From a virus: a DNA stretch of 64,000 nt. The position numbers and the translations under genes were made by a program. The notes beneath the pieces are model-generated. The model was not told where the DNA came from, searched no databases, and was given only the letters and a program-made list of their open reading frames with translations. Every line of letters begins with the position of its first letter. The first letter of the stretch is position 1. Positions 1,197-63,067 of the stretch are shown here, piece after piece. The DNA lies in IMG/VR virus record IMGVR_UViG_3300026118_000001, positions 25,727 to 89,726 of that record, one strand, 5' to 3'.

Positions 1197-1214
1197 TAAA
1201 GTGAAGTTGAAATT

Positions 1215-1254
1215 AATACACTCTCTAGTTTATGGTGCTAGAGAGTGTATTTTT
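1215..1254. terminator. Probable bidirectional intrinsic terminator between convergent genes
   Basis: AATACACTCTCTAG / CTAGAGAGTGTATT inverted repeat followed by a T run, between NAMPT (+) and HNH (-). Confidence 0.8.
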
Positions 1255-4428: not shown

Positions 4429-4429
4429 A

Positions 4430-7400
4430 TTATTTACACTTTTTTTCTATTAATTTTCCTAAACTTTCATCATCATGAACTTCATTAAGTTCTTTTAAAA
4501 GTTCTTCTTTTAATTGTGGTTGAAATTCAAATAAAAATTCAATATCTGATTTTAGTTCATTGTATTGTTCTTTTGATAATTCAAATTTCTCTCCAATATT
4601 AGTTATTTTCTCTTGTATTGGCAACTTATTTTCTTCTTTATTTATTTCATTGGATAAATAGATATTTCTAGCTTCTTCATTCCAAATTCCATTAGTTTGA
4701 TTATAAGCATTAAACATTTTAATCATTTTAGATGATGTTAAAATAGCTACATTCTTATCATCTAATTTTTTAATAATATTCCATGCTTTTAATGCTCTTT
4801 CTCTAAATTGTTTAAATGACTCAGCTTTTGGATTTATTTTTTCTTCTTCATTAATTGGATTAGACCATAACTTTTCATCATATTCATTCTCTTTAACTTC
4901 ACCTTCCCAATTACCCATATTCATAGTTTTTAGATTTTCATCTGTATAATATGGAATATTTTGTTCTTTTTTAATAATTTCTGCTGTTTGAATCACTCTT
5001 TCAATTGGAGAAGTAATTAATGATGTAATTCCTTGTATTTTTAATTCTTTTCCTAAATTAGAAGCTTGTTCTTTTCCTTCTTTAGTGAGATTTGTATCAG
5101 ATTGTCCATTAATCACATCTTTAGATGAGGGAACATCTTCTCCATGTTCAAATACTATTAAATTACCAACTTTTACTGGTTCTACTTTTGGTGATATGTT
5201 TTCTATAGTTATTTTTAATGGAGTTGTAATAGGAATATATTTAACATTAAATCCTTTTGTAGCTTTATTTACATCATAGTCTTTACCATACATTCCATTA
5301 CCCAAAGCAGAAAGTTGTAGATTTTTAAATATAGTTGGTACAATTTTATTGTTATTTCTAATAAATAGTTCATTAAATTTTGGTAGTATTTCTGCCCCAT
5401 TTTTTTTATTAAATTCTTCAAATGAGTCTTTAACTAATTGATTATAATATTCAAATGGAATAATTCCTAAATAAGTTATAGGAGAATTATTAAGTCCTGA
5501 TTGTAATATTCCAACATGAATTAATTCATTTCCTAATGATAAATTAGAATTCTTTAGTTCTCTAAATGCTTCTGTTAATTGATTAGATGTAAATGTATCT
5601 AATTTTTTAGTAAATATTTTAACATTGTCATAATTTAAAGCTGCTTTATCAATTAATGGAAATAATTCTTTAATTAGAATATTATTTCTTAATTGCTTTT
5701 CATCTTCATTTAAATTTTCTTCTTTTTTATTCTTTAATTCTAATAGTTTCTTAGCAACTGAATTTTCTCCTTCAAATAATCTCTTTCTAATAGCATTAAT
5801 ATTCTTATATCCATAGTTTTGAATTACAAAATTAATAAAATCATTTTCAATTAGATTAATCATTTTTAATTTCTCTTTTCTTGATGATTTAAATGGATTT
5901 TCTAATTCATTGGCAAGACCTAATATATTATTGATTATTTCTTCTTTTTGTGTGTCATAGAACTGTTTATATGAAGATATAGCAAATTCATCTTGTTGAA
6001 ATGATTTAATAAATGTCTTATTAATAATTTCATTAACACCATTAATAAAATTGGTTTTTTGTACTTTATTTATTTCTTCTAATTTAAGTCTTGAACTATT
6101 AATATTTTGACCTAATCCAGCAGTATCAGAATTAGTAACTCTAACAGCATCATTAAATAAACTAGCTTGTTCTTTATATTTTAAGAAATCATTAAATACT
6201 TGTAATTGAAATAATTCAAATTCTTTAGTAGATTGATTCTCAATTAATTTAAAATCTTTTAATTCTTTTAAAGAAAGTATTTTATTTTCAATATCCTTTT
6301 CAGAAACTAAATTAGAATATTTTTTCTTTATTTGTTTAGTTATTTCTGTATTTCTTTGATTCTTTCCTGTAGATTTTAAAAATATAGATTTATTCTTATT
6401 AATTTCTTCTATATAATCTAAAATAATAGGTTGAGTCATGAAATTAGCAATGTGTTCAAACGGAACTCCTAATTTATTCAAATATAAATAAATAGGAAGT
6501 GTATCCATAGTCATGTTTAAATAACTTACCATTGGAATTTCATCTTTAGCAGCATCCACAATAATATTAATTAACTGATTGTTAATTTCAGATATATTAT
6601 GATTATTTTCTGCGTCTTTTAAAGCTCCTAAATTAAAAACATCTCTAATTTCATTGTGAATTAAATTAATATTCACTTTAATTTCTTCTCCAGCAGCATT
6701 AATATAAGATTTATTAGCTGTTAGTCCAGATAATTGAGAAAGTGGCCCATAAGCATTAGCAATAGCAGATAAACCTACTTCATCTTTAGCAAGCCATAAT
6801 TTATATCTAGCATTTATTTTATTTTGTAATTTTAATAAGGCTGTATAATTAATCTTTTTATCTTTTGAATTTTGAGCTTCAAAATATTCTTCTTTAGTTA
6901 ATATTTTTTTAGGTTCTCTTCCTTTAGAAATTAATTCATTATTAGCTTCTGTTTTATCATTTAAATAATCAATATATTTAATATCATCAACTATTGGTGA
7001 TATAATACTTGTTGAATTGGGTGTTATTAGTGATATAAAGTTATGAGGATTAGAAATAAAATCTTTGATTACTTGTATTGTTTTATTATCAATATTATCT
7101 TCAATATAATTACCATTTTCATCTAAATTTGGTCTATAAGTATATAATTTGTCATTGTCAAAGTCAGATCCAGCTTTAGCAACTATATCAGGATGAACTA
7201 TCATAGTAGTAGCTGCATCTTCTGGTAGAAACTCTTTAATAGTTAAATATTCATTGGAATTCATTCCTTGTCCTGGAATACGACATCCAACTAATTCTAA
7301 TACTTTATTAGGTATATCTCCATTTTTAATAGCTTCATTAACTGCTTTTAAACTACCAAATTTCTTTAATAATGGATAATAACTTTCAGATAGAGGAATC

Positions 7401-10400
7401 ATTACTTCTGCTGGTAATGTATTTCCAGATGTATCTTTTGTATATCCTCTTAGAGCATTATTAGATCCAATAGGTCTATTTCCAAGTTTCTCCATTCCAG
7501 CCACTGTACCTAATACATAAGCATCTCCATTATATTTTTGTTTAATGAGTCTGGCATCAATAATAGACATTAATACAGAATCTAGTTTGGTTTTATTAAC
7601 CATACTATCAATATTGTATTTTAATACCTTTTTACCTTCTTTTTCTTCAATATCTAATGAATTAATTATGTTATCTGTTAATTTCCTATTTTCAGAATAT
7701 TCTACTAACATATCAACCAATTTAGTAACATCTTCAGCTACATATGTATCAGGATTAATACCTAATTCTTTAATTAGCTTATCTTTTTCTATTTTAGTTT
7801 TTTCTTCAATTAAGTTAGAGAAAGTTGATAATAGTTTTTCTGCTCCTTCAAATGTTTCTTTACCATTTTCAAAAGCATTAATTAACATTGTTTTTCTAAA
7901 CTGTGTAGAAAATATATATTTATCTTTTGGTGGTGAAGGTTTAACTTGTAGTCCTAAATAATTATAAGATATTGATTGTATAACTAAATCTGCATTATTA
8001 ATTTCTCCATGATTATTATTTGTATAAAATGGATTTGCTTTACCATCTTTATTAAGAATAGTTCCAAATTTACTTGCTGATTTGAATAATGCAATACCTG
8101 ATTTATTAGATTTCATGTTCTCTAATAATTTAGATAGATTCTTTCCAGCTACCATTTGAGGAATCAAAGGCATTATAGTAAATTTATAACCTCCAGGAAC
8201 AAATAATTGCTGTGTACTTCCATGATTAATTGGTCCAGCATATTGTAGTTTAAGAGTTTGAAAATAAGTTAATTCATCTTTAGTTAATAATTTCCCCTCT
8301 ATTAAATTTCCTTCATTATCAAATTTTTGTTTTTGAATTATTTGATAAGCATTTTCCATTTTATTAGTCCAAGTACCAACTCTATTATGAAACTCTCTAA
8401 TAAAATCTAAAGATCCCCATCCTTGAGCATCTCCTTCATCTGCTTTACCATAAGCTGAAATCCCTTTAAATTCTTCAGATTCAGTTTTCTCATAACCTAA
8501 TATATTATATGCTGCTTCTTCTGAAACTCCAGATTTAATATAAGTATCAACTAATTCTTTAATATCTTTGGTTGTAGTTACATCATTATAAACTATTGAA
8601 TTTTCATTTCCATCAGCTAGTTTATTATCAGATCTAATAAAATTCTTATTTAAGAAATCATTAGTTTCTTCATCTACTCTAGGAATTAGTTTGGTTCCTG
8701 CAAACATCGCAGTTCTTTTATATAAATCCTTATAGAAAGCTAAATTTCCAATAAATAATTTAGTTTGTTCTATTGAATTTATAAAATCTGTAACAACTAT
8801 TGCTCTGATTAATTGTTCTTTTGGGTATTTATCTGTATATTCTTTTGGAATACCAAATTCATTTATATTATTTTCTTTTAATGAATTATTTAATTGTCTT
8901 GAATAAGATTCAAAGAAATCAATAACTAATTTATCTAAATCAGGTAATAGAGAATTTACTAATTCATCTAATTCTTCTTTAGATTCATTATATTTAACTT
9001 CCTTAAATTTTAAATCATCTAATTTAGATTTTAATATCTCTTTAATATTTACTTTACTAGATTTTAATAATATTTCATTAAATATAGTAAAATCACTACC
9101 ATTTTTAGAATATCCATCTACATTAGTGCCAATACCATCTAATTTGAATAAAGCAATTCCTTTAAATTCTGATTTAAAATAACCTCTAAATATTTCTTTT
9201 AATTTAATAGTATTAAATCCAGATTTTAATAATTCTATTGATACTGGAAGCTTATTACTAAGTCCTAATACAAATTCTTGTGATTTATCTGCTGATACAA
9301 TATAATTAGATTTGCCATTTAATATAGAAGCTATATTTTGAGTGAATAAATCTCCTTTAGTACCTTTTCTTGTAGATATTTTACTAACATCTTCTGATTC
9401 TTTAGAAGAAGCTACACCATCATGTAATTCTAAATTAAGTTTAATATTTTTATTTCTAAGTCCTGTTTTTGGATTGAATAATTCATTTAACCAAAATGAG
9501 TTTTCTGCTCCAACAGTATTTAAATGTGGAAGTTTTAAAAATAATTCTTCAATAGAATTAACATTATTAATTATATTTGTAGTGATTGATAAAGCATTAT
9601 TATCACTAACAGAATAAACTGTCTTACCTTCTGTAGACATATAACTTAGTTCATTAACTAAACTAGTATTATTAGCTTCTAAAGTTAATAGATAATTAAT
9701 TCTACCTGCTATACCATCTTCTTCTTTTCCAGAATTATATAAATTAGTAACATCCCCATTTTTTTTATCAATATATATCTTTATAGCAGCAACACTATCA
9801 TTTAGATCATTTAGATTAAAATCTTTATCATTAATAATCTTTTGTGTGTTTTTATCAAATATAATACCTAATTTATCTAAAAAAACAAATGGATCTTTTT
9901 CATTAATTACATCTTTATTTATAATTAATTTTCCTTTCTCATCTTGTTTAGTGTGTAATAATAAATTAGCTTCCCAAATAGTTTTTACTTTTTCAGCTTC
10001 ATTTTGTCTATTAGTATCAACAGGAATTATATTACCATTTGGTTCATATATAGTTACAATAGCATTATATCTATTTTTGTTAAAATCTTGTGTAAATTGA
10101 GTTTGAAATCTAAATTGTTCCACACTAATATCACTAGATGGTGCTCCAAGTCTATCAATTAATTCTTGAAATTCAGGTTTAAATTCAATTAAAGACTCTA
10201 TTTTATTATAAATATCAGAATAATTGTTTCCTGTTCCAGCTAAATTCTTCAATAAATAATTATATGTAGAAGTGAAATCAACTGGAATAGAAAATCCTAG
10301 ATCATTAGTGATATTAACTTGTTTTAAACTTCTAATTAATAGTCTTACGGGACTACTAATAGATTCTAGTGTAGAAGTTAAATTCCCTTCAGAATAATCT

Positions 10401-13400
10401 CCCTTACTAGAATGTTCATCTAATTGTTCATCTTTTGATAATTCTTCATCCTCATTTTTAATTTCTTCAATATTATTTTCTATTTTAGTAACTATCTCAA
10501 CACCATTGATGTTAATTCTAGTTTTCCACATATTAATAATATCATCCCAATTTTCTAATATGTATTCATAATCTTTTATTTGTTTCTCATCAACAGAATT
10601 TTGATATTTATCATCTATAATATCATGTATTTTATCTGTTATTTTATTTACATGACTATTTGCAATAACAGGAGTTCTCCCATTATCAAATATATAATCA
10701 AAAAATAAAATATCTATTCCATCTAAAACATCTTTAACAAATTTAGTGCCTTTTTCATTAGTTATTCTTTTTGTGTTCTCATCCCTGTTAAGTGATGAGA
10801 ATTCTTTTGTATTAACTAATTTCTTATTTGTATAATAGCCTTTATCAAGTCTTTCATATACTTGTTGAATATTTGTACTGCTAATACCTAATAAGTCTTT
10901 TAAAAAGCTTAAAATACGTCTAAAAATAGTATTTCTTTGTGGAGAGTTATTTAATACTTTACCTCCTAGTTTATAACTAACAAAATCTTCTGCTAATATT
11001 TCTTCTAATTCTTTTCTAGATTTATTTGAATATTTTTTAGAAGCCTCATTATATAGTTTATCTATTTCTTCTTTAGTAAGATATAATTGTGTTATAACAT
11101 GGAATGCTTCATGATGAAGAGTTCCAATAGTAGCTTCATCTGATAATAATACTTCACCAGATGATAGAAATTGACCTAAAGATTTTTGTTCAATTAATCC
11201 TTGAATAAAATTAATAGGAATATTAGGAAATCTCTCTTTAAACCAATTAATTTCTTCTTGAGATAATTTGTTTCTATCTTGATTTCTTTTTTTAAGTCTA
11301 TCTAATACTTTGTCACCACTTCTTTTTTTAAACTCTTTTTTAATTGGTTTAATTTCTTCTGTAATAATTGGAGATGTATTATCTTCTATTCTTTCAGAAG
11401 TTTCTAAATCAACTTTTTCTTTTAATTTATTTTCAATTAATTTATTATCATAAATAAAATAAGATTGAATAAATCTTCTATTTGGTCTTCCATTTAAATC
11501 AACTATTGGTTTTAAATCAGTTCCAAACATAGGAACTTCTCCTGATAATAAATATTCATTATAGTGCACATTTTCACCTCTACCATTAATATCTGGTTTA
11601 GTGAAGGATTCTCCCTTAATATATTTATTATTAACATTAACCTTTTTAGTTAATAAGAAATCAATAATTTTAGATCTATTTGATTCTATTTCTTCTTTAG
11701 TTAGTTCGTTATTATCAAATACAAGTCTTCCATCAGAATTGATATAAATATCTGAAGGTTTATTAGACTTAAAGAATGTAGTTATTTTCTTAATTTCATC
11801 TATTGGATCAAAATCTAAATCTTTTTCTTTAGTATTTAGTTTCTTATTAATTAAATCAATAATTAAACTAGCCTCATCTACATTAAGATTTCTTGGAATT
11901 AAATCAAATATTCTTCTATTACCATCTTTAGTATATAACTTTCCAGGCAACACTTTAATATTATTAAATATTAAATTAAATGTTGGAAGTGTTAATGGGA
12001 TTTCATCATATTTTATATTCTTGTCAAATATTCTTCCTAATAAATTATTAGATTGTCTTTCACCATTAATTTTATCTTCAAAAGCAGAATGAATAATGTT
12101 AGCATTTTCATCTGTTTCAATCATAAGTCCATTAGATTTACCTATAATTGGAAGATATTTAACATCATTATTTTTTAATAATAAGATTTCATCTCTTAAA
12201 GAATTTAAATCTTTAATTGCTTTCTCTTTAGCTTTTGATTTATCTTCTTTAGAAAGTCCTCTACCAATATCAATTTTATTATCAGAAATACGTTGAGCAG
12301 TTTCTAATGTAGATTGAATAAATTTATCCTCTTCTAATACTGGATTATTCTCTTTGTCAACTAATATAGTCCAAACTCCTTTAAAATCAGGATGTTTTTT
12401 CTCATATTCTTTAGCTGTAGGATCATTATCTAATATTTGAGAATATAATTCAGGATTTGTAGCTTTTGTTACTACTAATAATTTATGTTCATCTAAAACT
12501 ATTGTTTCTGTAGTTTTAAAATATCTATCTTCTGATGGTTTCTGTCCATTATCAATTCCTCCATTTGTTTTAAATGGTGTATTAGCTTTTCTACCAACAT
12601 CATTACTATCATCTAATATAAATTCTTTATTAATAAATAAAGGATCTTCATTAATAGTTGTAGGAGATTCTACATTAGAAATAATTGGTTCATTATCTAC
12701 TTTTGTTGATTGAGGAGTAGTTTGAAATTTTAATTCTTTTTCAATTTCTGCTTTATTATTCTCATAAAATTGTAAATCTTTTGGATCTGTAAGACTTTCA
12801 GTGTCCATTATTTTTTGAACAAAATCTTGAATTTCTTTAGAAGCTTTTGATTTAGAAATTAAGGGTTCATCAGTAACTTTTGGAAGTGGAATTTCTTCTA
12901 CAATATTTGATTCTTTAGATTCTTCTTCAGAAGTGTCAATAATATCATTAAGAGTTTTCTTTTGTGTTTTTGGATCTGCTAATAAGTTATAAGACTCAAT
13001 TAATTTGTCTTTATATAATTTAGCTAAATGTAAATCTTTATTTGCTTGATTAACTTGTTGAGCAACCATTGGATTACCATCAACAGTAAATGGAGATTCT
13101 GGTGTTCCTAATCCAGTGATTGTAGCATCATTTTCAGCAGCTATTTTATAAATATCACTATGAATTTGTTTAACTCTTTTATCAATATTACTTATTGATG
13201 TAGAATAATGCCATAAATTTGTTGTTAATGTATTATATTTTTCTGGAGATTCATAAACCTCTTGTTTATAAGGAAATAACTCATGAATAGAATTATTAGT
13301 TTTATCTAGAGTTTTAACTAATGAAATAGCATCATTAATTATTTGTTCTTTAGAATGCGGAAGAGGTTTTTCTATTGGATAACCAGCTACTTTTTTAAAT

Positions 13401-48918: not shown

Positions 48919-49113
48919 ATGAATGTAGAACAACTAATAATAGGTAAACATTATATCTATACAAATCATAATAATGAAGAAGTTCATGTTGAATATATTG
49001 GTGTAGTATCTGATGGATTAACATTCTATAAGTTTAGATGTTATGAAACTGATAGTATTACAACATATTCTCTATTTGATTTTGAAGTTGTAAATTGTAT
49101 TAAAGAATTATAA
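48919..49113 (+). CDS. Small beta-rich hypothetical protein
   Basis: MNVEQLIIGKHYIY; A-rich leader. Confidence 0.6.
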   Translation: MNVEQLIIGKHYIYTNHNNEEVHVEYIGVVSDGLTFYKFRCYETDSITTYSLFDFEVVNCIKEL

Positions 49114-50103: not shown

Positions 50104-50367
50104 ATGAATGCAGATCAAATGATTAAAGGTGAATATTATTCATTAAACGATGGAGAATATATTTTTAGATTTAAATATATTAATGATAAATATGTTTTTA
50201 TTATGGATGATTATTTGTGGAGAAATAATTTACAAACAAATCAAACTTTAAATAATGAATTATGTTTATGTGATTTTAATAATAAAGATATTAGAAAAGC
50301 TACATTAGATGAAATTAAATTATTAAATTTTAATTATAGTATTAAAAGAGTTATTCAAATTTATTAA
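50104..50367 (+). CDS. Small protein with C-terminal QIY tag (1/8)
   Basis: Ends KRVIQIY*. Confidence 0.7.
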   Translation: MNADQMIKGEYYSLNDGEYIFRFKYINDKYVFIMDDYLWRNNLQTNQTLNNELCLCDFNNKDIRKATLDEIKLLNFNYSIKRVIQIY

Positions 50368-50772
50368 ATGATACCAAGTGTGTTGGTGAATGATTGATAA
50401 TCAAATAGTTATATGATTAAAGGAGGACATTAGTTGTTTTATTAAGTGACTTATAACCTGAGATGTTAATATATAATTGTTTGATTATTAAGTTAATTAG
50501 TTGATAATGAGTGATTTAATAAAGATTTTAACTTCTATTTTAGTCATAAGTTAAGTTATTCATTATCAATTAGTTATATTTTAATATAATTTTAGAGATT
50601 TGTCACAGAATTGTCATGTTCTTAGTTAGACTAGTGATGTAGGTCATATAATCTATTTTCTCTATTAGCGAAATTTTCTCTAAATTTATAATAATTATCC
50701 AAAACTATAGCTTTTTATTCATTACAATTATAATAATCCTTATTATATTATTAACTTAATATATAAACTAAC

Positions 50773-51171
50773 ATGTCAATTATATTAGAATTAACAGATA
50801 AAATACCATTTGGTAAATTTAAAGGTTTATCAATTGAAGCATTATTAGATGATAATGTATATTTTATATCATCTCAACATAAATATTTAAATTGGTTTAA
50901 TAAAACAGTTACAACTCATCAGTTTTCAGATGAAGTTAAACTATTATTAAAACTTAAATTAAAAGAAATAGCTGATGAAGCAATAGAAGCTGAAAGAGCT
51001 TGGAATCAAAGACAATGGGAATTATCTCAACCACCTTATTCTAATAAATCATCAAACAAAAGATCATCCTCATATACTAATGAAAATTCATGGCAATCTG
51101 GAATAAATGAAAGCTATCAAGAAGTTGGAATGAATTTGGGTGATATGGGTTATGATGGTGATGGGTGGTAA
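50773..51171 (+). CDS. Protein with PFGK.KG (DUF3820 / exonuclease X C-terminal-like) motif
   Basis: IPFGKFKGLSIEAL...YLNW. Confidence 0.6.
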   Translation: MSIILELTDKIPFGKFKGLSIEALLDDNVYFISSQHKYLNWFNKTVTTHQFSDEVKLLLKLKLKEIADEAIEAERAWNQRQWELSQPPYSNKSSNKRSSSYTNENSWQSGINESYQEVGMNLGDMGYDGDGW

Positions 51172-51221
51172 TTGAAGCTTCAGATGAATTAGTAATTAAT
51201 AATATTAATAATTAAAAATAA

Positions 51222-51518
51222 ATGAAGAAAATTATATTTATGTTCATGATTGCATTAGTTGTAACATCATGTCAAGAACCAACAATAATAAAACAAGATA
51301 AATTACCTATTTTAGTAGATAAAATAAAAGATGAAGCTAAATTTGATACAGTATTAACAATATCTGATAATAACAAAGTATATTTGTTTGAAACTAAACA
51401 AAATGAATATATTGGTGAATATTATAAAGAAACTGATGATATTGGTTTTGGTATATTTATTGGTATAGTAATAGGATTATTTATTGTATTACTATTATTT
51501 GCTGCATTTTATGATTAA
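51222..51518 (+). CDS. Lipoprotein with C-terminal TM
   Basis: MKKIIFMFMIALVVTSC lipobox; hydrophobic C-terminus. Confidence 0.6.
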   Translation: MKKIIFMFMIALVVTSCQEPTIIKQDKLPILVDKIKDEAKFDTVLTISDNNKVYLFETKQNEYIGEYYKETDDIGFGIFIGIVIGLFIVLLLFAAFYD

Positions 51519-51532
51519 ATAAACTAAAACAA

Positions 51533-51733
51533 ATGATAAAATCAATAATATCAACAATAATAACATTTTTGTTATTTCAATTTTCTCCGTTATATTGTAG
51601 ATGGATACAAAAAACTTTTAATTATGATAGAGATGAAATGTTTTTAATTTTTATATCTTTAGCAATAATAATTATAGGTTCTATAATAAATACAATAGTT
51701 TCATGGGCCTTTTATATAGATAAAAAATTATAA
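51533..51733 (+). CDS. Two-TM membrane protein
   Basis: Two hydrophobic segments. Confidence 0.55.
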   Translation: MIKSIISTIITFLLFQFSPLYCRWIQKTFNYDRDEMFLIFISLAIIIIGSIINTIVSWAFYIDKKL

Positions 51734-51889
51734 TATGAAAATCAAACAAACAATTTATCCAGATTTAATATTTACTTGTTTCAATGATTGGATGAGATAT
51801 ATTAGATTAACTAATAGAAAATAAAGAAATTAGACTATCTGCTGAAGATATTTTTGCAACCTTTTTGATGTTTTCTGCATCTTATATAT

Positions 51890-52558
51890 ATGAAAAAAAT
51901 ATACATTTATTGTTTAAAAGACCCAAATGGGTTAATTAGATATATTGGTAAAACAACCAATATAAAAAGAAGATTATATGGGCACATATATGAAGCAAAA
52001 AAATCAAAAGGAAAAAGATATGTTTTAAATTGGATAATCAATTTAATAAATTCTGGATTACTTCCAATTATAGAAGTTATAGAAATTTGTAATGAAAGTA
52101 ATTGGCAAGAAAAAGAAATTTATTGGATTGATTTTTACAGAAAAATTATTCCTAATCTTTGTAATAATTCTGATGGTGGATTAGGAGGAAGTGGAATAAA
52201 AAATTATTCTAAAGAAGAAATTATTAGAAGAAAATCATTAATGAGTAGGCAGTTTTCTAAATTTTCAAATGAAGAAAAGTTAAATATTTGGAAATTAATA
52301 AAAGAAAATAAATCCACTGAAGATATTAAATTATTCTATCCAACCTATAGTAGACAAATTCATTTTGGTGTTAAAAATGGAAGACAATGGAATGAAATAA
52401 CTAATTTGATTAAAGTTAAAGGGAAATCAAAAAGAAAGGGTTATACTTATAATAAAGGATTGTTTATAATTAGAAAAAAGACAAATGGAAAAAGTAATGT
52501 TTTATTTTCTTCAAAAGTTGAAGAAGAAGTATTAAAATACTTAGAAATGGACAGATAG
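51890..52558 (+). CDS. GIY-YIG homing endonuclease
   Basis: IYIYCL...IRYIGKT..I.RR..GH, E.YWI, LCN..DGG. Confidence 0.85.
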   Translation: MKKIYIYCLKDPNGLIRYIGKTTNIKRRLYGHIYEAKKSKGKRYVLNWIINLINSGLLPIIEVIEICNESNWQEKEIYWIDFYRKIIPNLCNNSDGGLGGSGIKNYSKEEIIRRKSLMSRQFSKFSNEEKLNIWKLIKENKSTEDIKLFYPTYSRQIHFGVKNGRQWNEITNLIKVKGKSKRKGYTYNKGLFIIRKKTNGKSNVLFSSKVEEEVLKYLEMDR

Positions 52559-52995
52559 TCTATACTTACATACCAAGGCTCATAACACTTTAAGGTGGTA
52601 ACTCTGGAGTAATAGATATACGCTTAAAAATACTAGTTTGGATAAGTGTACATTATTACGAGATAGAGAAAAATAAACTTTACAACTTTGAGCCGCGGTG
52701 CCATATTACAGGCTAAACATTGATCCTGATGTAAATTAATCTGGGACAATCAGATAGAGGTGCTAGAATAATTTCTCTTAATTGAGGCTTATAAAAGCTT
52801 AAAACTGCCAGTAGTGATACTGAATAAAGAATTGATTATATATCAATAGAATAACTCTAATTTACATAAAGATACTAATAGAAATATTAGATGTGTTGTT
52901 CCCTTGAGAAAGGGATTATTAACCCAAGAGAGAGAAGGTTATGCTCTACAACACAAATGAGCTCACTACTTACCTGTAAGGTGGAGTAGTTTTTA
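52552..52995 (+). ncRNA. Candidate structured non-coding RNA
   Basis: About 440 nt without a credible ORF, GC-enriched; several stems, GNRA tetraloops (GTGA, GAAA, GAGA) and crossing pairings. Confidence 0.5.
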
Positions 52996-53011
52996 TTTAA
53001 AAAAGTAAAAA

Positions 53012-53419
53012 ATGGAACAATGGAAAGATGTCCCAAACTATGAAAACTTATATCAAATAAGCAATTTTGGCAATGCAAGAAGTTTAGACAGATGTTCTAA
53101 AAACAAGGTTTTATTAAAAGGCAAACCAATTAAATTAAACGCAGATAAATTTGGATATTTTAGATTTACAGTAACTAAAGGAAATTCAAGTAAAACATTA
53201 AGAATACATAGGTTAGTTGGAGAATTATTCATACCTAACCCTTTTAATTTGCCTCAATTAAATCATAAAAATGGGAATAAAGAAGATAATTGTAAAGATA
53301 ATTTAGAATGGTGTTCTGATTCAGATAACAAGAAACATGCTTATAGTATTGGTTTAATGAAATCAGGTAATCAATATAGTAAAAATAAAACTAGAGCTAA
53401 TTTGCCTAGATATTGTTAA
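53012..53419 (+). CDS. NUMOD4-HNH homing endonuclease
   Basis: EQWKDVPNYENLYQISNFGN.RS (NUMOD4); IHRLVGELFIPNP...NHKNGNKEDN...NLEW...N. Confidence 0.9.
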   Translation: MEQWKDVPNYENLYQISNFGNARSLDRCSKNKVLLKGKPIKLNADKFGYFRFTVTKGNSSKTLRIHRLVGELFIPNPFNLPQLNHKNGNKEDNCKDNLEWCSDSDNKKHAYSIGLMKSGNQYSKNKTRANLPRYC

Positions 53420-53774
53420 TTATTTCTAGCTTTTCAAAGAAGCAGCTTATAATTAATCTGAAAAGCTACAACTATTAAAGTTAAGTATTTATACTAAACA
53501 ATGTGATTTAGAGGAAAATAGTAGCATTATAAGTAGATTTGATGACACTGGTAGTTAAGTTAGAACAAAATATACAGTGAAGTTGAAAGTCTTGTTCTAC
53601 ACCAGTGTAAAAACCATAGAAATGATAAACAAATGAAAACAATTAAAAACTTATTAAATTGTATATTTATATTATTATTTGTTATAATAGCTTCATTTTT
53701 AATTACTTCTGATATTAACAAAGAACAAGCTAAATCAAAAATAATAGAAATACCTTTTATAAAATGTTACAAAT

Positions 53775-54014
53775 ATGGATATAACTAAAATAAGATATTT
53801 AAAAGCAATAGAAAATTATAATGGTTATATTATGAAGAATGTTATATATCAATCTTATAATATTGGTATAGTAATTAATAATTCATTAGGTAATCTTAAT
53901 TATAGAATTAATCAGAATCTTTACTTTATCAATGAAAGGGAAGAAGAATATTTTATTGAAGTTACTGAAAAAGAATATAAAAATCAATTTAAGAAAATAA
54001 TACAAATCTATTAA
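53775..54014 (+). CDS. Small protein with C-terminal QIY tag (2/8)
   Basis: Ends KKIIQIY*. Confidence 0.7.
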   Translation: MDITKIRYLKAIENYNGYIMKNVIYQSYNIGIVINNSLGNLNYRINQNLYFINEREEEYFIEVTEKEYKNQFKKIIQIY

Positions 54015-54189
54015 AACTAAAAACTATGACACTAATCACATCAAAAAGACCTAGAATTATTGTTCAAAACAAGGTTCTATTAGCTTCTTCTACAGGATAT
54101 AGAGGAAATACAATTAATCAAAATAGAGCATTTAATAGAGCTAATAACTTAGCTATTGGAGTTATTAATGCTTTTAATAAGAAGTAAAA

Positions 54190-54489
54190 ATGAAAACAAA
54201 TAAATTATTAATTATAATAGCAATAGGTATATGGGCTTGGTTTATGCCATTCTTATTTAAAAATCTAGATTTAATAGACCAAATATTATTGTTTATTGGT
54301 GGGAGTTATATAATAGGATTAGGTTTATTTGGTTTAATATTAAATTATAAAAAACAAATAATAAAGTTTATTGGTGATATTATTTATATTAGATATTATC
54401 AAGAAACTAATTTGGCCAATAAATTATTAGTAATTGGATTTCTAAGAGGTATATTTGGATTTAAACTATTTTATTATATAGATTTATGA
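54190..54489 (+). CDS. Membrane protein
   Basis: Three hydrophobic segments. Confidence 0.55.
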   Translation: MKTNKLLIIIAIGIWAWFMPFLFKNLDLIDQILLFIGGSYIIGLGLFGLILNYKKQIIKFIGDIIYIRYYQETNLANKLLVIGFLRGIFGFKLFYYIDL

Positions 54490-54719
54490 AGTTATATGCT
54501 AAATGTATAAACAAAGATAATAAAGATTTAACTATTGGTAAAACATATGAATATTTTATTAAAGAAAATAATAATTATAGTTGGATAGAAAACGATGGAA
54601 TAGAAAATGGGTATTCAAATAGTGGTAATAGTTTGGGTTTTTCTAAGATGAAATTTTTAGAATTTTTTAAACCAATTAAATCAATTAAACCAATTAAAAG
54701 AGTAATACAAATTTATTAA
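54486..54719 (+). CDS. Small protein with C-terminal QIY tag (3/8)
   Basis: AKCINK...LTIGKTYE; ends KRVIQIY*. Confidence 0.7.
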   Translation: MKLYAKCINKDNKDLTIGKTYEYFIKENNNYSWIENDGIENGYSNSGNSLGFSKMKFLEFFKPIKSIKPIKRVIQIY

Positions 54720-54762
54720 GAATTTTAAATTAAATAATAACAATTAAAAACAAAAAACAATT

Positions 54763-55251
54763 ATGGCAAAAACAGTAAAAGCAACAAATGAAGTAGCATT
54801 ATCAGGACAATTTAATATTACTGAAGAAGGAATTCCAGCAATGTTAAAACAAATTACTGAAAGAATTTCTCAATTAACAGGCAGTAAAGAGAAAAAATCA
54901 AGACTTAGTGGTCAATTAATGGGAGAAACTCTTTCAGAAGTTAAAGATGTTAATAAACTTCAAGAATTATATGCTTATATTACAAAAAAAGGTGCAGCAA
55001 TTGAAGAAAATAGAGATAAATTTCTTGCTGTATCTCCAATACAATTGAAAGAGTATATAGAAGAAGGTGGAACTGTTGCTGAATGGCAAGAAGCTATTTT
55101 AGAACAATATGCTAATGTAACTCATGAAGAAGAATTACAGAAATTAAAGAAAACTAAAATAGCTTTAGAAGAATGTCTTTCTGAAGAAGCTAAAAAGAAA
55201 GCAAGATTAGAAAGTATTGGTGTTACATTAAAAGAAATTTTAAATAAATAG
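54763..55251 (+). CDS. Helical/coiled-coil hypothetical protein
   Basis: 162 aa, strong A-rich leader, followed by a terminator. Confidence 0.65.
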   Translation: MAKTVKATNEVALSGQFNITEEGIPAMLKQITERISQLTGSKEKKSRLSGQLMGETLSEVKDVNKLQELYAYITKKGAAIEENRDKFLAVSPIQLKEYIEEGGTVAEWQEAILEQYANVTHEEELQKLKKTKIALEECLSEEAKKKARLESIGVTLKEILNK

Positions 55252-55260
55252 TTACTAATT

Positions 55261-55300
55261 AATATAAGAGAATGTAGAAATATGTTCTCTTATATTTTAT
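55261..55300 (+). terminator. Intrinsic terminator
   Basis: AATATAAGAGAATGTA-GAAA-TATGTTCTCTTATATT followed by TT. Confidence 0.65.
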
Positions 55301-55309
55301 ATTATTATA

Positions 55310-55540
55310 ATGACAAATGAAAAATTATTAATTAAAGCTAGAAGAGATTATCCTATTGGTATTAAATTTATTAGTCCTGAAAATAATAGAACTTATATTA
55401 TAAAAAATGATAGATATTGGATTGGTACTAGTGAATCTATTTTAGCTTCAATTAATGGACATTCTGGAGAATATATTTATTATAATGATAAATGGGCTAA
55501 AATAGTATCAAAACCAAAGAAAATAATTCAGATTTACTAA
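55310..55540 (+). CDS. Small protein with C-terminal QIY tag (4/8)
   Basis: A.RDYPIGIKF...WAKIV; ends KKIIQIY*. Confidence 0.7.
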   Translation: MTNEKLLIKARRDYPIGIKFISPENNRTYIIKNDRYWIGTSESILASINGHSGEYIYYNDKWAKIVSKPKKIIQIY

Positions 55541-55688
55541 TTTAAACGTCTTGTGCTCAACTTAAATGTTGTGTTCTCAAAATCAATAGGTAAAGTTGAT
55601 TTATATACAATAACCTTAATAATATTACAATTTAATTTGATATATTGTTTTGGTTATTGTATTTTTATTAATATTTAATAATTAATTA

Positions 55689-55982
55689 ATGAAATATAAA
55701 ATAGGAGATATTGTTAAATTTATCAATTTAGATGTAGATTATCGTATAGGAGGTGAATGGGAACATGTTTTTAAAAGAAATAATAAAGAATTAACTATTG
55801 GAGGAAGTTTAATAATAAATAAAGAATATTATAATAAATATTTTGCTAAAATAATTGATATACAAAAAGATGATTATTTAGTAGAATATAAAGATAATTC
55901 TAATAAATTTGTTAGACTTTCATTTAAAGAAAATAGATTTACTTTAGTTAAGCAATATAAACAAATAATTCAAATATATTAA
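55689..55982 (+). CDS. Small protein with C-terminal QIY tag (5/8)
   Basis: MKYKIGDIVKF; ends KQIIQIY*. Confidence 0.7.
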   Translation: MKYKIGDIVKFINLDVDYRIGGEWEHVFKRNNKELTIGGSLIINKEYYNKYFAKIIDIQKDDYLVEYKDNSNKFVRLSFKENRFTLVKQYKQIIQIY

Positions 55983-55984
55983 CT

Positions 55985-56347
55985 ATGAGTGAAGAAATAA
56001 TAACATTGAATGGTGTCAATTTCAAAATTGATGAAAATAGTAATTTAATAGCTTTCAAAGAATCTAAGAAATCAAAATTATTAAAAAGAAGACAAGAATT
56101 ATATTCTTGGAATTGGTTTTATATGAATTCTAAAGAAAGTTTATATGCTACTAGGTATCATCAAATAGAAGTTATGAAAGATGGAGAAAAATTCATTGAT
56201 GGTGTGTATATAAATGATAATTTAAATTCTCATTATGGTAAAGCTATTTATTATTCTCAAAGATATAAAGATGATAGAGATAAAATAGCAAAAGTAAATT
56301 TAGAAATAGAGAAAAATTGGAATGAATCTAAACCTGTAGAAAAATGA
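55985..56347 (+). CDS. Hypothetical protein
   Basis: ORF in operon. Confidence 0.55.
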   Translation: MSEEIITLNGVNFKIDENSNLIAFKESKKSKLLKRRQELYSWNWFYMNSKESLYATRYHQIEVMKDGEKFIDGVYINDNLNSHYGKAIYYSQRYKDDRDKIAKVNLEIEKNWNESKPVEK

Positions 56348-56553
56348 AAACAAAAATATTAGTGGTATTATTAGCAATATTTTTATGTTCTTGTGAAAGT
56401 TTTATGTTAAGTCCATTGGTGATTACAGGAATTGAGACTAATAATAAAACTAATAATTCTGTTTATAGTGGCTATAGATACATAGTTCATTTAGAAGGAG
56501 GATTAAATTACTTCACAAACAAAAAATATTATATAGGAGATACAATTAAATGA
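56344..56553 (+). CDS. Small lipoprotein
   Basis: MKTKILVVLLAIFLCSC lipobox. Confidence 0.6.
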   Translation: MKTKILVVLLAIFLCSCESFMLSPLVITGIETNNKTNNSVYSGYRYIVHLEGGLNYFTNKKYYIGDTIK

Positions 56554-56838
56554 CAAATGAAGTAATTATAGAAATAGTAGAAACATTTTGTTTAACAATA
56601 GTCTGTATTGCATTTTTTTGGTTTTTAACCAAATTATAAAAGTATTAAATAATATATAAATTCTCTATATAGATGGGACAAACCACAGAGATAGTTGTAA
56701 TTGTATATTATTAATAGATATTAGTCTATATCTTTAAAATAAGGACAAATGTGAAACTTATGGCATTATAAATATAAGTGTAAATGATAATAAATTATCA
56801 TAAAAAATAATAAAATATAACAAAAAAACAAAAACATT

Positions 56839-57252
56839 ATGGAAACAGTAAAACCAATTAGAATGTCTGAAATTAAAACAGAAAAAAGAATTAAAGACAC
56901 AAAGAAAAACCGTCAATTTTATACACTTTATTTTATGGATCCAAATAATCCTTTAGCTGAAATGCGTCAAAGGAATGTGTTTCAATCTCATGTAAATGAT
57001 GCTGGAACAGATTGTATTTGGAAATCAGGGGATCCTTCAATAATGAAACAATTTATTGCTGAAAACAGGGAAATTCCTGGTCAATTTTTAAATGTAAAAG
57101 TAGTTCCTTATCAAGTTGGAGAGAGAATGGTAGATAGTTATTCTCTAATATTACTTAGAGGAGAGAAACTAGAAACTATTCTTAAACAACAAGGTCATGT
57201 ATTGGCTACAACTGTTGTTAAAAAACAAGAAGAAGTTCTTAGTTTAAACTAA
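56839..57252 (+). CDS. Hypothetical protein, possibly OB-fold / ssDNA-binding
   Basis: Strong A-rich leader; beta-rich with aromatic and basic residues; function is a guess. Confidence 0.4.
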   Translation: METVKPIRMSEIKTEKRIKDTKKNRQFYTLYFMDPNNPLAEMRQRNVFQSHVNDAGTDCIWKSGDPSIMKQFIAENREIPGQFLNVKVVPYQVGERMVDSYSLILLRGEKLETILKQQGHVLATTVVKKQEEVLSLN

Positions 57253-57263
57253 TATAAAATGGT

Positions 57264-57332
57264 CTGTCTAGTAGCTAGCTGGAAAAAGCACGTAGGAATA
57301 TAGATGTATTGGTTCGAGTCCAATCTAGACAG
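57264..57332 (+). ncRNA. tRNA-like element lacking a canonical anticodon arm
   Basis: Acceptor TGTCTAG/CTAGACA, TA-GCT..TGG..AGC D arm, ATTGG-TTCGAGT-CCAAT T arm; only 17 nt between D arm +1 and T stem (about 22 expected); no encoded CCA. Confidence 0.7.
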
Positions 57333-57365
57333 CTTAATTAAATTATTAATTTAAAAATTATAATA

Positions 57366-57530
57366 ATGTTTAAAAAGAATTATAATATAAAACATAGATT
57401 TGATAAAATATATGGTAAATGTTCTTGTGGTAATACTTGGATATTAAGAAAGAATAACAATACAAATATAGATTTTCTTGGATGTTCTAATTATCCTAAA
57501 TGTAAAAATACTAAAAATATAAGTAAATGA
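57366..57530 (+). CDS. Stand-alone topoisomerase-type C4 zinc ribbon (54 aa, not in ORF track)
   Basis: KCSCG..WILR......FLGCSNYPKC. Confidence 0.7.
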   Translation: MFKKNYNIKHRFDKIYGKCSCGNTWILRKNNNTNIDFLGCSNYPKCKNTKNISK

Positions 57531-57838
57531 TAGTTAAATGTATAAATGATAAATTTGATGAAGAGAATAAAATTTTAAAAGCTATTAAATTAGTTGGAGA
57601 TGATTACTTAATTCCTAAATTAGATCAAGAATATGAAGTAATTGGTTATGGAGATTTTAAAAAGAGAAAAGGATATTTATTAAAAGAAATTGATACATCA
57701 ATATATGGTGCGCGATTATTTTTTAATGAAGATAATTTTATGATTATAGATGACAGTTTTATGCCTAATATTATATTAGAAGATGGTCATTTAGCAAGAG
57801 AAGTATTATTATATATGGAAATTAATATTAATAAATAA
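57527..57838 (+). CDS. Hypothetical protein
   Basis: MIVKCINDK...EYEV...GYLLKE. Confidence 0.6.
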   Translation: MIVKCINDKFDEENKILKAIKLVGDDYLIPKLDQEYEVIGYGDFKKRKGYLLKEIDTSIYGARLFFNEDNFMIIDDSFMPNIILEDGHLAREVLLYMEININK

Positions 57839-58015
57839 AAACTAAAATTATGTTAGAAATAGACTATAAACAAGTAAAAGCTAAAGATTTAAAGAAGTAT
57901 GGAAAATTTATTAAAAAAGAATTGTATTTAAAAGAAGGAATTCATTGTTTACCTAGATTTGAAATTAATTCAGATAAAGTTTTTGTAGTTAATAATAATC
58001 AAACATTAAAAGAAA

Positions 58016-58219
58016 ATGAATGATATAATTAAAGAAGGTTCTATTATTTTAATAGATAAAGATAAATATTTATATGATCCTGATAAAAAGTTTAAAACTA
58101 CTAAATATAAAATTTTTAGTGGTTGGAATCAACAAGCAATTCAAAGGAATATTAATAATGGAAGCTGGATATATAAAGGAAATTTAAATGAATCTAATAA
58201 AATAATACAAATTTATTAA
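58016..58219 (+). CDS. Small protein with C-terminal QIY tag (6/8)
   Basis: Ends NKIIQIY*. Confidence 0.7.
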   Translation: MNDIIKEGSIILIDKDKYLYDPDKKFKTTKYKIFSGWNQQAIQRNINNGSWIYKGNLNESNKIIQIY

Positions 58220-58512
58220 TGAATAAAATAAAAGAAAATGATTTTATAGTTAGAACTTGGCCTAGTGGTAAAAAGACTATGGGAAAAGCTATATCCTTAC
58301 ATGGTAAGTTTAGTACTCCTGTGTTATATTTTGAATCATTAGAAACTTATTTTTCTGAAGGTGGTGTTTTAATTAATAATACTTATGGAGAGGTTAAAAA
58401 TAATTATTGTGGAATACCACAAAGACTTGCTGCAAAAAAAGAAATTAATTGGTTTAATAAATATAAAACATTAACTAATTATAAAGAAAAAGAGATAATA
58501 CAGATATATTAA
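58219..58512 (+). CDS. Small protein with C-terminal QIY tag (7/8)
   Basis: Ends KEIIQIY*. Confidence 0.7.
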   Translation: MNKIKENDFIVRTWPSGKKTMGKAISLHGKFSTPVLYFESLETYFSEGGVLINNTYGEVKNNYCGIPQRLAAKKEINWFNKYKTLTNYKEKEIIQIY

Positions 58513-58781
58513 TGAATGAAAATTTAATAAAAAATCATTATGAAATAGCATTAAATTTAATTAATTTAAAAGAAATTAAGAAAGCTAAACTTGAATTATA
58601 TAATAAAATGCCAATTGAATTATATGATGAAAGTTTAGATATTCTTAATAATAGAAATTTAAAGTTTAAGAATAGAAAGCTTAAACAATTAATTGAAAAT
58701 GTACACAGTTTAATTAATGATTATAATGAACAAGAGAAAGAATCAAATATTAACGATAATAATATAAACTTTTTAATATGA
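58512..58781 (+). CDS. Hypothetical helical protein
   Basis: Coupled ORF. Confidence 0.55.
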   Translation: MNENLIKNHYEIALNLINLKEIKKAKLELYNKMPIELYDESLDILNNRNLKFKNRKLKQLIENVHSLINDYNEQEKESNINDNNINFLI

Positions 58782-59008
58782 TGGAAGTATTAGTTAAGCA
58801 TCCATCTGGTAATCAAATGAAAGCTTGTGATGAGTGTAAATATAGAACTTTAAATTGTAATGGTCCTCATAGGAAGATAAATATTATGACTTGTCCTGCA
58901 AATAATGGAGAATATTATGAACCAGATAATATAAAACAAAATCCAAAAGAAGTTAATAATGATTATACATATTTAATTAAAATATTAAAAAAATATAATA
59001 TAAAATGA
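58778..59008 (+). CDS. Small Cys-containing protein
   Basis: CDEC...C...CP. Confidence 0.55.
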   Translation: MMEVLVKHPSGNQMKACDECKYRTLNCNGPHRKINIMTCPANNGEYYEPDNIKQNPKEVNNDYTYLIKILKKYNIK

Positions 59009-59196
59009 AATATATAACAAGAATAATAGTATTACCATTTGTATTTGCAATAATATTTACAGCTTATGTAGTTCATGCTTTTAATAATACTAGATTATTT
59101 CTATTATATGGTGGAGAATGGAATACATATACTAAAGATGATAAGGTTACAATGCAAAAGATTTATTTAAAATTAAAAGAAAATGAACAAATTTAA
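59005..59196 (+). CDS. Small membrane protein
   Basis: N-terminal TM, YGGEW. Confidence 0.55.
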   Translation: MKYITRIIVLPFVFAIIFTAYVVHAFNNTRLFLLYGGEWNTYTKDDKVTMQKIYLKLKENEQI

Positions 59197-59434
59197 AATT
59201 GGTGATATAGTAGTTATTGATAAGTCTTTATTTGATAAATCATTTTATAAAGAAGTAAAAATGTATTCTTCTCCTTTCTTAGAAGAACATTGGAAATATA
59301 CTATATCTGACATAAATAGTAATGGAAATGGGATGAAAAATGGATTTGTAAGATTAGAAGAAGATAATAGTTGTAATAATCATCCTTATGATATATTTAA
59401 ATTAGTTAAACCAAGAATATGTCAAATATATTAA
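59183..59434 (+). CDS. Small protein with C-terminal QIY tag (8/8)
   Basis: MNKFKIGDIVVI; ends PRICQIY*, overlapping the polymerase start. Confidence 0.7.
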   Translation: MNKFKIGDIVVIDKSLFDKSFYKEVKMYSSPFLEEHWKYTISDINSNGNGMKNGFVRLEEDNSCNNHPYDIFKLVKPRICQIY

Positions 59435-62230: not shown

Positions 62231-63067
62231 ATGAAATTTAAGAATATTACAAATTTAGAAGAATTTAAACGGGATTATGATAATTTGACTATTAATCAAA
62301 TTACAAGTAAATATAAATTAAATAATAAGACAATATGGTCTTATGCCAAAAAATTAAATATAAGTAGAAAAGTTGGAGAAAAAAAGATTTATAAAGTAAA
62401 TGATAATTACTTTTCTAAATCAAATGACTCTTCAAATAAATATTATATTTTAGGTTTAATTTATACAGATGGAAATTTACCAACTAAAGATAAAAGATCT
62501 TTTATAATTTCTAATATTGATTTACAAATATTAGAAGATATTAAAAAGGAGTTTAATTTTACTGGTATAATTAATAAAGAACATCATAAAAAATATAATA
62601 AATATATTTATAAATTAAAAATAAGTTCTCATCAAATGAGAAAAGATTTAGAATCTTTTGGATTAACTCCTAATAAAACCATGAATTTAAAATTTCCAAT
62701 TATTCCAAAAGAATATATTGGGGATTTTTGTAGAGGTTTATGGGATGGTGATGGTAGTGTATCTAATCCTTTAAGTAGACAAAAAACAAGAACTTTGTTA
62801 GGTTCAACTTTTGTATGTGCTAATAAAGAATTTATAAAACAATTATTAATATTTTTACCTGTAAAATTAAAATCTTTTCATGAAGTAACAAAAAATAGAA
62901 AAAATCCATTATATACAATTAATTTTAGAGGTTTCGACTCTATTAGATTAAGGGATTTTTTCTATTATGATAATTGTTTATGTATGGAAAGAAAGAAAAT
63001 TAAATTTTTTAATTATATACCAAGACGTTCAGAGACTATAATACACAATCCTACAAATGAGGATTAA
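62231..63067 (+). CDS. Double-motif LAGLIDADG homing endonuclease with N-terminal HTH
   Basis: YILGLIYTDGN and FCRGLWDGDGSV; 3' end overlaps intron core (R, P8). Confidence 0.88.
   Translation: MKFKNITNLEEFKRDYDNLTINQITSKYKLNNKTIWSYAKKLNISRKVGEKKIYKVNDNYFSKSNDSSNKYYILGLIYTDGNLPTKDKRSFIISNIDLQILEDIKKEFNFTGIINKEHHKKYNKYIYKLKISSHQMRKDLESFGLTPNKTMNLKFPIIPKEYIGDFCRGLWDGDGSVSNPLSRQKTRTLLGSTFVCANKEFIKQLLIFLPVKLKSFHEVTKNRKNPLYTINFRGFDSIRLRDFFYYDNCLCMERKKIKFFNYIPRRSETIIHNPTNED

Follow-up and report, generated by a model that had tools for sequence, protein, structure and literature searches.

That one short peptide can be shared by diverse proteins is an established principle. The C-terminal tip of SSB, an acidic run followed by a hydrophobic-Pro-aromatic end, serves in hub docking, and the capsid targeting sequence (CTS) of phage T4 is N-terminal, is cleaved off by the prohead protease and targets the prohead scaffolding core. 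The ssrA-like and the basic-then-apolar ClpX signals are C-terminal degradation tags, and in E. coli a C-terminus that is apolar, or basic and then apolar, can act as a degradation signal. The canonical bacterial sliding-clamp motif is Q-aliphatic-x-[L/M]-[F/L], or a six-residue form, and its first Gln matters for affinity (PMC11139829). Here we describe a C-terminal tail, [IV][IC]QIY, that is carried by eight small early open reading frames (ORFs) in a 64,000-nucleotide stretch of viral DNA, called the window below (bases 25727–89726 of the 89,726-bp virus record IMGVR_UViG_3300026118_000001, which carries 99-bp terminal repeats).

We read the tail as a modular docking or assembly tag and give this reading a probability of about one half. 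The main new result, shown by comparison of predicted proteins, is that each lineage puts a tail of its own on the domain typified by one of the eight ORFs and also on ORFs without that domain. The eight tagged ORFs are called T1–T8 (T4 is always the ORF, as distinct from phage T4), the window's genome is G000 and its sister phage G002, and L and P numbers denote related contigs and proteins, respectively. Tagged bodies not matched by the hidden Markov model (HMM) of the T4-type domain are referred to as HMM-unmatched.

Eight ORFs with a shared C-terminal tail

All eight ORFs lie on the + strand, encode 67–97 aa and end directly before TAA, with the coordinates and endings given in a preliminary description made from the letters of the window. 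T1 (50104–50367, 87 aa) ends in KRVIQIY-TAA, its tail codons occupying 50350–50364, and T2 (53775–54014, 79 aa) ends in KKIIQIY-TAA. T3 (54486–54719, 77 aa) has a Pro- and Lys-rich linker before its tail and ends in KRVIQIY (KPIKSIKPIKRVIQIY-TAA), and in T4 (55310–55540, 76 aa) body residues 1–67 are followed by the linker and the tail PKKIIQIY. T5 (55689–55982, 97 aa) ends in KQYKQIIQIY-TAA. The stop of T6 (58016–58219, 67 aa, end NESNKIIQIY-TAA) overlaps the start of T7 (TAATG), which itself ends in KEKEIIQIY-TAA (58219–58512, 97 aa), and T8 (59183–59434, 83 aa, end KPRICQIY-TAA) overlaps the start of the DNA polymerase ORF. The isoelectric points of the eight proteins range from 5.3 to 9.7. 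None of the proteins contains a membrane segment (maximum 19-residue hydropathy 0.64), in agreement with the earlier statement that they lack signal peptides.

The analysis confirmed that the shared tail is real and not a product of chance. The string QIY occurs 40 times in the six frames of the window and 11 times directly before a stop; eight of these 11 are the tagged ORFs, and the remaining three sit 1–6 codons past the preceding stop. Genome-wide, QIY ends 8 of the 243 ORFs of at least 40 aa, with 0.041 expected from composition. The next commonest end 3-mer was found three times, and the commonest shared end 3-mer reached a maximum of five in 2000 composition-preserving draws. The DNA pattern ATHCARATHTAYTAA gave seven forward matches, no reverse match and none with the reversed-pattern control, every match being in frame at the end of a tagged ORF. 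None of the opposite-strand ORFs of the structural block ends in QIY, which bears out the remark that no late-block protein has the motif. Since TAA is the usual stop (84 of 113 ORFs), its constancy after the tail carries no weight.

The preliminary description had further held that the codons vary synonymously, so that selection acts on the peptide rather than on a DNA repeat, and that the motif is always flush with the stop. To compare codons, we used the 18 unique tagged genes of the clade (from four contigs), and the motif was flush with the stop in all of them. In 18 of 18 genes the first two positions of the Q, I and Y codons were invariant, and the third varied in each of these codons (Q, A/G 12:6; I, T/C/A 8:2:8; Y, T/C 15:3). 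Amino-acid changes in the tail were limited to I/V at −5 and I/C at −4, and the T6 tail is spelled differently in its G002 ortholog (CAG ATA versus CAA ATT). Since the QIY variation is confined to wobble positions, we conclude that the peptide is under selection. The I-to-C variant is confined to the gene directly upstream of the polymerase, also in L010; in T8 the Cys codon (ATA TGT) contributes the start codon ATG of the polymerase ORF at 59419, giving an overlap of 59419–59434.

These results bear on an explanation in which the tail has no common partner and is instead a core strand, a DNA or RNA signal (a recombination site, for instance, or part of the start of the following gene), or a 3′ end inherited or homogenised by recombination within a single paralog family of great age and rapid divergence. 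The overlap of the T8 tail with the polymerase start would fit such an origin, as would the points where homology with the sister phage is lost, which lie at or close to the tail and at the first 7–32 nt of several genes. It is difficult to reconcile with variation at wobble positions only and with a pattern that occurs only in frame at ORF ends. Moreover, the gap from the tail to the next start varies from an overlap to about 400 nt, and simple scans found no terminator at any tail and promoter-like sites at background (106 versus 99.5 ± 9.9). Together with the evidence on the bodies given below, this makes an explanation without a common partner very unlikely.

Lineage-specific tails and the T4-type domain

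An AlphaFold model of T4 (four-row alignment; mean predicted local distance difference test score, pLDDT, 88) has an N-terminal helix and a small beta domain of six strands, the last of which ends at residue 67. Residues 68–76, which include PKKIIQIY, are modelled as coil, and the last block has a pLDDT of 61; in this confident model the tail lies outside the fold. The corresponding model of T5 (two-row alignment, mean pLDDT 42.6) was too poor for use. A Foldseek search of the T4 model against the PDB returned nothing at E ≤ 0.001, the best rows being Hfq/Sm and SH3-like small barrels with a TM score of about 0.4, and a look-up of T4 in the ESM Atlas gave no hit at ≥0.9 and no structural match above TM 0.53.

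The T4 body is widespread. When a profile of the T4 family was searched against 1.84 billion representatives, 1125 proteins were matched at E ≤ 1e-3, covering profile positions 1 to about 73, that is, the body. Among the 149 best domain matches, 133 are proteins of 150–1363 aa with up to seven tandem copies, and no Pfam family covers the T4-type domain proteins. In the tandem-repeat proteins the domain ends at ..WAEI[IV]S.P., and in stand-alone members of about 80 aa ..GKWAEI[IV]S.P. is followed by a short linker and then a tail. This tail is IIQIY in P0023, P0103 and P0109, the latter two being more distant proteins, IYEIY in P0154, YCEIY in P0097, VCEIW in P0067, DYSIF in P0123 and P0144, DYPIF in P0128, NYDLF in P0110 and NYLIL in P0145; two others have long helical extensions instead. 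In L025 the domain lies within a 234-aa protein without such a tail. Scans of viral contigs with P0123, P0154, P0109 and P0103 gave no match. Since scans of cellular genomes with T4-domain profiles found no relative, the host could not be named.

A domain HMM built without the tails found the domain in five contig sets with E-values of 2e-9 to 7e-32 (the weakest counted being 2.1e-09). In G000 and G002 the domain is followed by PKKIIQIY, and the same tail stands on seven HMM-unmatched ORFs of the window and on more in L008 and L010. L149, the polymerase of which is 82% identical to that of the window, has ..ENQYEIYG after the domain and NNYEIY at the end of its HMM-unmatched ORF 590–877. In L184 the respective ends are ..IIDNYEIY and NNFEIY (HMM-unmatched ORF 10493–10771), and in L183 the domain is followed by ..NYNYLIKLLKRLNIK and ..NYIINLFKKLKIK, the HMM-unmatched ORF being 9720–9995. 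In L194, a 135-kb contig (L193 is of the same type), six ORFs carry the domain tail ..[DE]L.[KE]A[LR].IIY[EKS][DE] (e.g. ..DLDKARxIIYED), and the same tail is present on the HMM-unmatched ORFs 9131, 9417, 9703, 13962 and 14959, giving 11 tagged ORFs in total. The four lineage tails are thus IIQIY, YEIY, ..A[LR]xIIYED and the 15-residue, helix-like NYxYLIKLLKRLNIK. HMM-unmatched ORFs of different lineages look alike by eye, and significant similarity was found within lineages only. In addition, ORF 58778–59008 (+ strand, 76 aa), which is absent from G002, ends in NNDYTYLIKILKKYNIK, the tail type of three L183 ORFs (8203, 9720 and 9992), and the window therefore holds a second tag type. One peptide is accordingly found on bodies that appear unrelated, and one body is found with other tails or none, as would be expected of a modular tag.

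The exact tail has a narrower distribution. The window polymerase is about 30% identical to the polymerases of crAss-like phages and of Maribacter phage Panino, and 13 DNA sequencing runs (12 rhizosphere, one soil) were listed as containing this DNA, with no RNA run listed. In 18 viral loci found via the polymerase, the tail was present only in L008 (seven QIY ORFs) and L010 (eight), and it was present in none of 31 metagenome loci. A pattern scan of the viral collection yielded at least 116 stretches; among the 115 new loci listed, L121 alone has more than one QIY ORF (five; L008 type). A profile of 17 tagged proteins searched against 5.8 billion proteins gave seven matches, all from the same clade, including a T5 homolog that ends in ICQYTR. 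G001, whose polymerase is 63% identical, is the closest relative without the tail, and its small early ORFs are of another set.

An apolar pentapeptide after basic residues might mark early proteins for a host AAA+ protease, as a degron or timing signal through which they are lost later in infection, or might occupy the protease. The tail has several properties expected of such a signal: it is apolar, is preceded by K or R, is exposed in the T4 model and is flush with the stop in every one of the 18 unique clade genes. Degrons are usually degenerate, however. Here about 11 body types have Q, I and Y without variation, and in related lineages the same domain carries acidic-ended (IIYED) or long helix-like tails. 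Since the tails on the same domain are so unlike, a co-evolving specific partner fits better than a conserved host protease, and we consider a degron unlikely.

The lineage tails also bear on the possibility that the tail is a host sliding-clamp motif that docks in the beta-clamp pocket. The polymerases of related phages end in QLQLF (L012/L156, 45–2312) and QLKLF (L025, 64–795), which fit the canonical motif; the window polymerase ends in KIENE, and no match to PF00712, the clamp family, was found in the genome. Some stand-alone domain proteins end in NYDLF or DYSIF, and L149 has QYEIYG. The tail [IV][IC]QIY, however, fits the consensus at positions 2 and 3 only, having I or V at position 1, I at position 4 and Y at position 5, and the IIYED and helix-like tails fit it nowhere. 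A complex prediction for T4 and the E. coli beta clamp (DPO3B_ECOLI), run without controls, gave scores of 0.04 and 0.10, the mark being 0.32, and counts neither for nor against such docking. On the fit to the consensus, clamp docking is improbable.

Exchange, relatedness and fusion of the bodies

Local replacements apart, the DNA of G002 and that of G000 are 90–98% identical over most of the region that the two phages share. Among the + strand ORFs of at least 60 aa between 46 and 59.4 kb, six of eight tagged but 6 of 22 untagged ORFs were below 90% identity or missing in G002 (one-sided hypergeometric p ~0.03). T1 is 100% identical in G002, the T6 ortholog is 80.6% identical, and T3, T5 and T7 are absent; at the place of T3, between the T2 and T4 orthologs, there is a different QIY ORF (L010 5222–5482). 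T2 is 100% identical in L008, L010 and L121. For T4, T7 and T8, the first 7–32 nt and the tail are kept between phages and the body is different: in T7 the DNA homology begins again at 58495, exactly where the tail codons start, and in T8 the sister phage has another body, flanked by an unchanged 5′ end and an unchanged tail. The T8 ortholog of L008 (9559–9810) has an in-frame stop at codon 37 with the tail kept. Contigs of run X3 showed matching junctions; since the flanking sides were short (22–35 letters), they were used only as agreeing with the comparison with G002. The results showed that the tagged genes are variable cassettes and the ones most often exchanged.

A localisation or packaging signal, one that sends diverse anti-host proteins to one place such as the virion, the membrane or the replication site, would likewise be expected on small proteins that are diverse, quickly exchanged and alike in nothing but a short peptide. 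The genes, however, are the first of the replication-side arm, on the strand opposite to the structural block, and the tail is C-terminal with no evident cleavage site. On this evidence we regard a localisation signal as quite unlikely.

The preliminary description had called the eight proteins dissimilar. This stood at the level of sequence, with the reservation that some bodies are weakly linked by BLASTP. An all-against-all comparison of the eight bodies without tails gave a best E of 0.005 (8-sequence database), and among the 17 unique tagged proteins significant matches were found within ortholog groups only. The weak links join T1 to L010 8531–8812 (E 0.001, 17-sequence database), T7 to the same ORF (L010-8531) and T6 to L010-8301. 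No tagged protein reached a cut-off in Pfam or PHROGs, T2 being without any family match, and in a MAFFT alignment of the 17 proteins the invariant columns were M1 and QIY only. Among the ORFs of this genome the tail-less domain HMM matched T4 alone (E 4.7e-30; one of eight tagged ORFs), three family HMMs recovered only their own members within the genome, and a search with the J-like family found three proteins only. As judged by BLAST, Pfam, PHROGs and HMMs, the bodies are not one detectable family. Nor was a single paralog family, aligning end to end with the tail as an ordinary core strand, found by BLASTP, by the HMMs or in the T4 model. These findings, together with the unpacked tail of the T4 model, further disfavour an explanation without a common partner, in favour of which it should be mentioned that all bodies seem to be small and beta-rich (T4 model and sequence reading).

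By eye, the N-terminus of ORF 48919–49113 (+ strand, 64 aa) resembles those of T1 and L010 8531–8812 (..IGKHYIY.. versus ..GEYY..). This ORF ends in CIKEL, is without the tail and is not matched by the T1-family HMM.

To investigate whether tagged bodies also occur in larger proteins, 14 HMM-unmatched tagged proteins were searched with phmmer against 134 large proteins, with 280 shuffled queries as a control. The real queries gave eight matches at E < 1e-3 and the shuffled queries two, the best at 3.4e-4. The strongest matches were those of L010-8531 (E 2.5e-7 and 4e-6), T5 (E 3e-5 and 1.3e-4, the former to segment 982–1057 of the 1109-aa P0100) and T8 (E 8.8e-5, to a segment of the 749-aa P0052). 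Since matches of shuffled queries reach 3.4e-4, only these three body types are secure, and by sequence similarity three tagged body types are fused into predicted large proteins of other phages. An HMM of the T1 body type matched four multi-domain proteins (E 6e-5 to 1.4e-4), and the family HMMs bear out the T1 type and the T5/T8 type but not the T6 type. In L192 the genes for dNMP kinase, DNA polymerase and helicase are preceded by one for a 541-aa multi-domain protein, located on the side of the polymerase where the window has its tagged cluster. Cellulophaga phage Calle is the only cultured phage with the domain; it is part of gp054, and the surrounding genes are non-structural. The C-termini of the large proteins are richer in K/R than internal windows (2.35 versus 1.03) and more often have a hydrophobic last residue (57% versus 31%). 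A conserved terminal hairpin in the large proteins was considered and dropped, since AT-rich 3′ ends could give the same pattern.

Several observations concern the neighbouring genes. ORF 50773–51171 (+ strand, 132 aa), located directly after T1, has an acidic, Gly-rich tail with a terminal Trp (..DMGYDGDGW). Outside the window, a 184-aa ORF at genome positions 11153–11707 has an SSB-tip-like end (..AGDDLPW), and the L149 ORF at the matching position, directly upstream of a primase-like Toprim ORF, ends in ..KSDLPF. The polymerase gene of L149 (8498–11593) is split into 8498–8902 and 10031–11593, and the 301-aa ORF between the pieces resembles the GIY-YIG endonuclease of this genome, which suggests an intron-like insertion. 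Within the window, ORF 51890–52558 has BLAST similarity to the same GIY-YIG ORF, ORF 53012–53419 has an HNH-like motif by eye, and ORF 62231–63067 (+ strand) matches LAGLIDADG homing-endonuclease families in Pfam. At 56799–56987 the contig depth reached 600–5600 in all four runs and the loose ends were A runs; the likely cause of this jump is a low-complexity, A-rich stretch to which unrelated contigs are drawn. The 162-aa ORF 54763–55251, which lies between T3 and T4, was considered as a hub candidate on account of its position and was rejected, its apparent likeness to L149 897–1346 not being borne out by BLASTP (E 43); in PHROGs it matches only phrog_2574, of unknown function.

A candidate docking tag and the known systems

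In the reading that we prefer, the products of the eight ORFs would be soluble proteins of small size and a single domain each, and their genes belong to the replication-side arm of a crAss-like phage from rhizosphere samples. Each protein would consist of a body drawn from a pool of different small beta-rich modules, a short polar or basic linker, often with Pro, and the tail [IV][IC]QIY, which would bring the module to one partner or one assembly. A lineage would be expected to keep its tail uniform across changing bodies because all tagged proteins must fit one partner or each other, and the bodies could then be swapped between phages with the connection kept. Since the same modules are fused in other phages, joint action is suggested and a docking or assembly tag is favoured; tagging would be the non-covalent counterpart of the large proteins that fuse the same module types. 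We infer that the tag binds something, and with it the geometry (possibly beta-strand addition by the tail) and the identity of the partner, for which a phage hub, a host protein and the tags themselves are candidates. An amyloid-like zipper between tails was also considered, on account of a resemblance to short peptides prone to aggregation. The preliminary description had proposed a docking tag with a free carboxylate on interchangeable domains. A peptide module independent of the body agrees with our results, whereas a need for the free carboxylate is doubtful outside the clade, where the ends include YEIYG, IIYED and the 15-residue helix-like tail; one T5 homolog ends in ICQYTR.

Several findings weigh against a docking or assembly tag. 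Several ORFs with the exact IIQIY on one contig were seen in one narrow clade only, among the matches listed. Neither in length nor in character are the tails alike across lineages, so that it is their position and co-occurrence, and not tail homology, by which they are called the same system. A usable model was obtained for one of the eight bodies, and the tail may be a packed strand in others. The links between HMM-unmatched bodies are weak; all of these bodies are possibly small beta barrels, and they may share a very distant common ancestry. The matches of T2 and of the J-type to fused proteins (~3e-4) were no better than the best shuffled match, and since K/I/N-rich C-termini are common in AT-rich genomes, the enrichment at the ends of the large proteins is given no weight. 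Pfam and PHROGs revealed no candidate partner among 30 neighbouring and distal ORFs of the + strand arm, in which the families found were MoxR-type AAA+, DNA ligase, DnaB-like helicase, AAA_24, Toprim and homing endonucleases.

A more specific version of the docking reading, which we put forward tentatively as possible but doubtful, is a plug-in system of environmental crAss-like phages in which a lineage-specific C-terminal peptide links fast-turning, target-binding modules, either free-standing or fused, to a co-evolving, phage-encoded hub. If this were true, a phage could swap the captured host target without changing its handling.

Most early genes of crAss-like phages are unexplained, and by the tag many of them can be placed in one functional set, with 8 of about 30 ORFs in the early block here and 11 ORFs in L194. 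Since the tail can be used as bait or deleted, it offers an experimental handle on the common partner. It also illustrates a way in which phages can swap modules and still keep their function, and the lineage-specific variants on the same domain are a ready data set for a partner search by co-variation.

The preliminary description knew of no described system with this motif, and full-text literature searches (main texts) for the tail strings, the domain motifs and such a system did not find one. What is new is the C-terminal form, the lineage-specific variants and the link to fused multi-domain proteins, none of which appeared in these searches. Among the known systems, the clamp-binding motif is likewise a short hydrophobic or aromatic peptide, often at the extreme C-terminus of unrelated proteins, that docks in the pocket of a hub (PMC11139829); IIQIY departs from it at positions 1, 4 and 5, and the tags described here differ between related phages. 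Unlike the SSB tip, the tails are preceded by K or R and not by an acidic run, and there is no Pro in their last five residues. With the C-terminal degradation tags they share an exposed apolar C-terminal peptide after basic residues, but the QIY core shows strict invariance here, and its counterparts in sister lineages look unrelated. The CTS of the T-even internal proteins is similar in that diverse, fast-changing small proteins share one short peptide that leads to one destination (PMC3012670), and here likewise the genes that vary between near-identical phages are the tagged ones. The shared peptide is, however, C-terminal in the present case, no cleavage is evident, the N-termini of the tagged proteins share no invariant residue beyond Met1, and the genes lie in the replication-side arm. 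The large multi-domain proteins (P0008–P0156) contain one to seven copies of the T4-type domain together with T1-, T5- and T8-like segments and are likewise encoded in the replication arm; they are single chains of 150–1363 aa, whereas in the window comparable modules appear as separate genes with a common tail.

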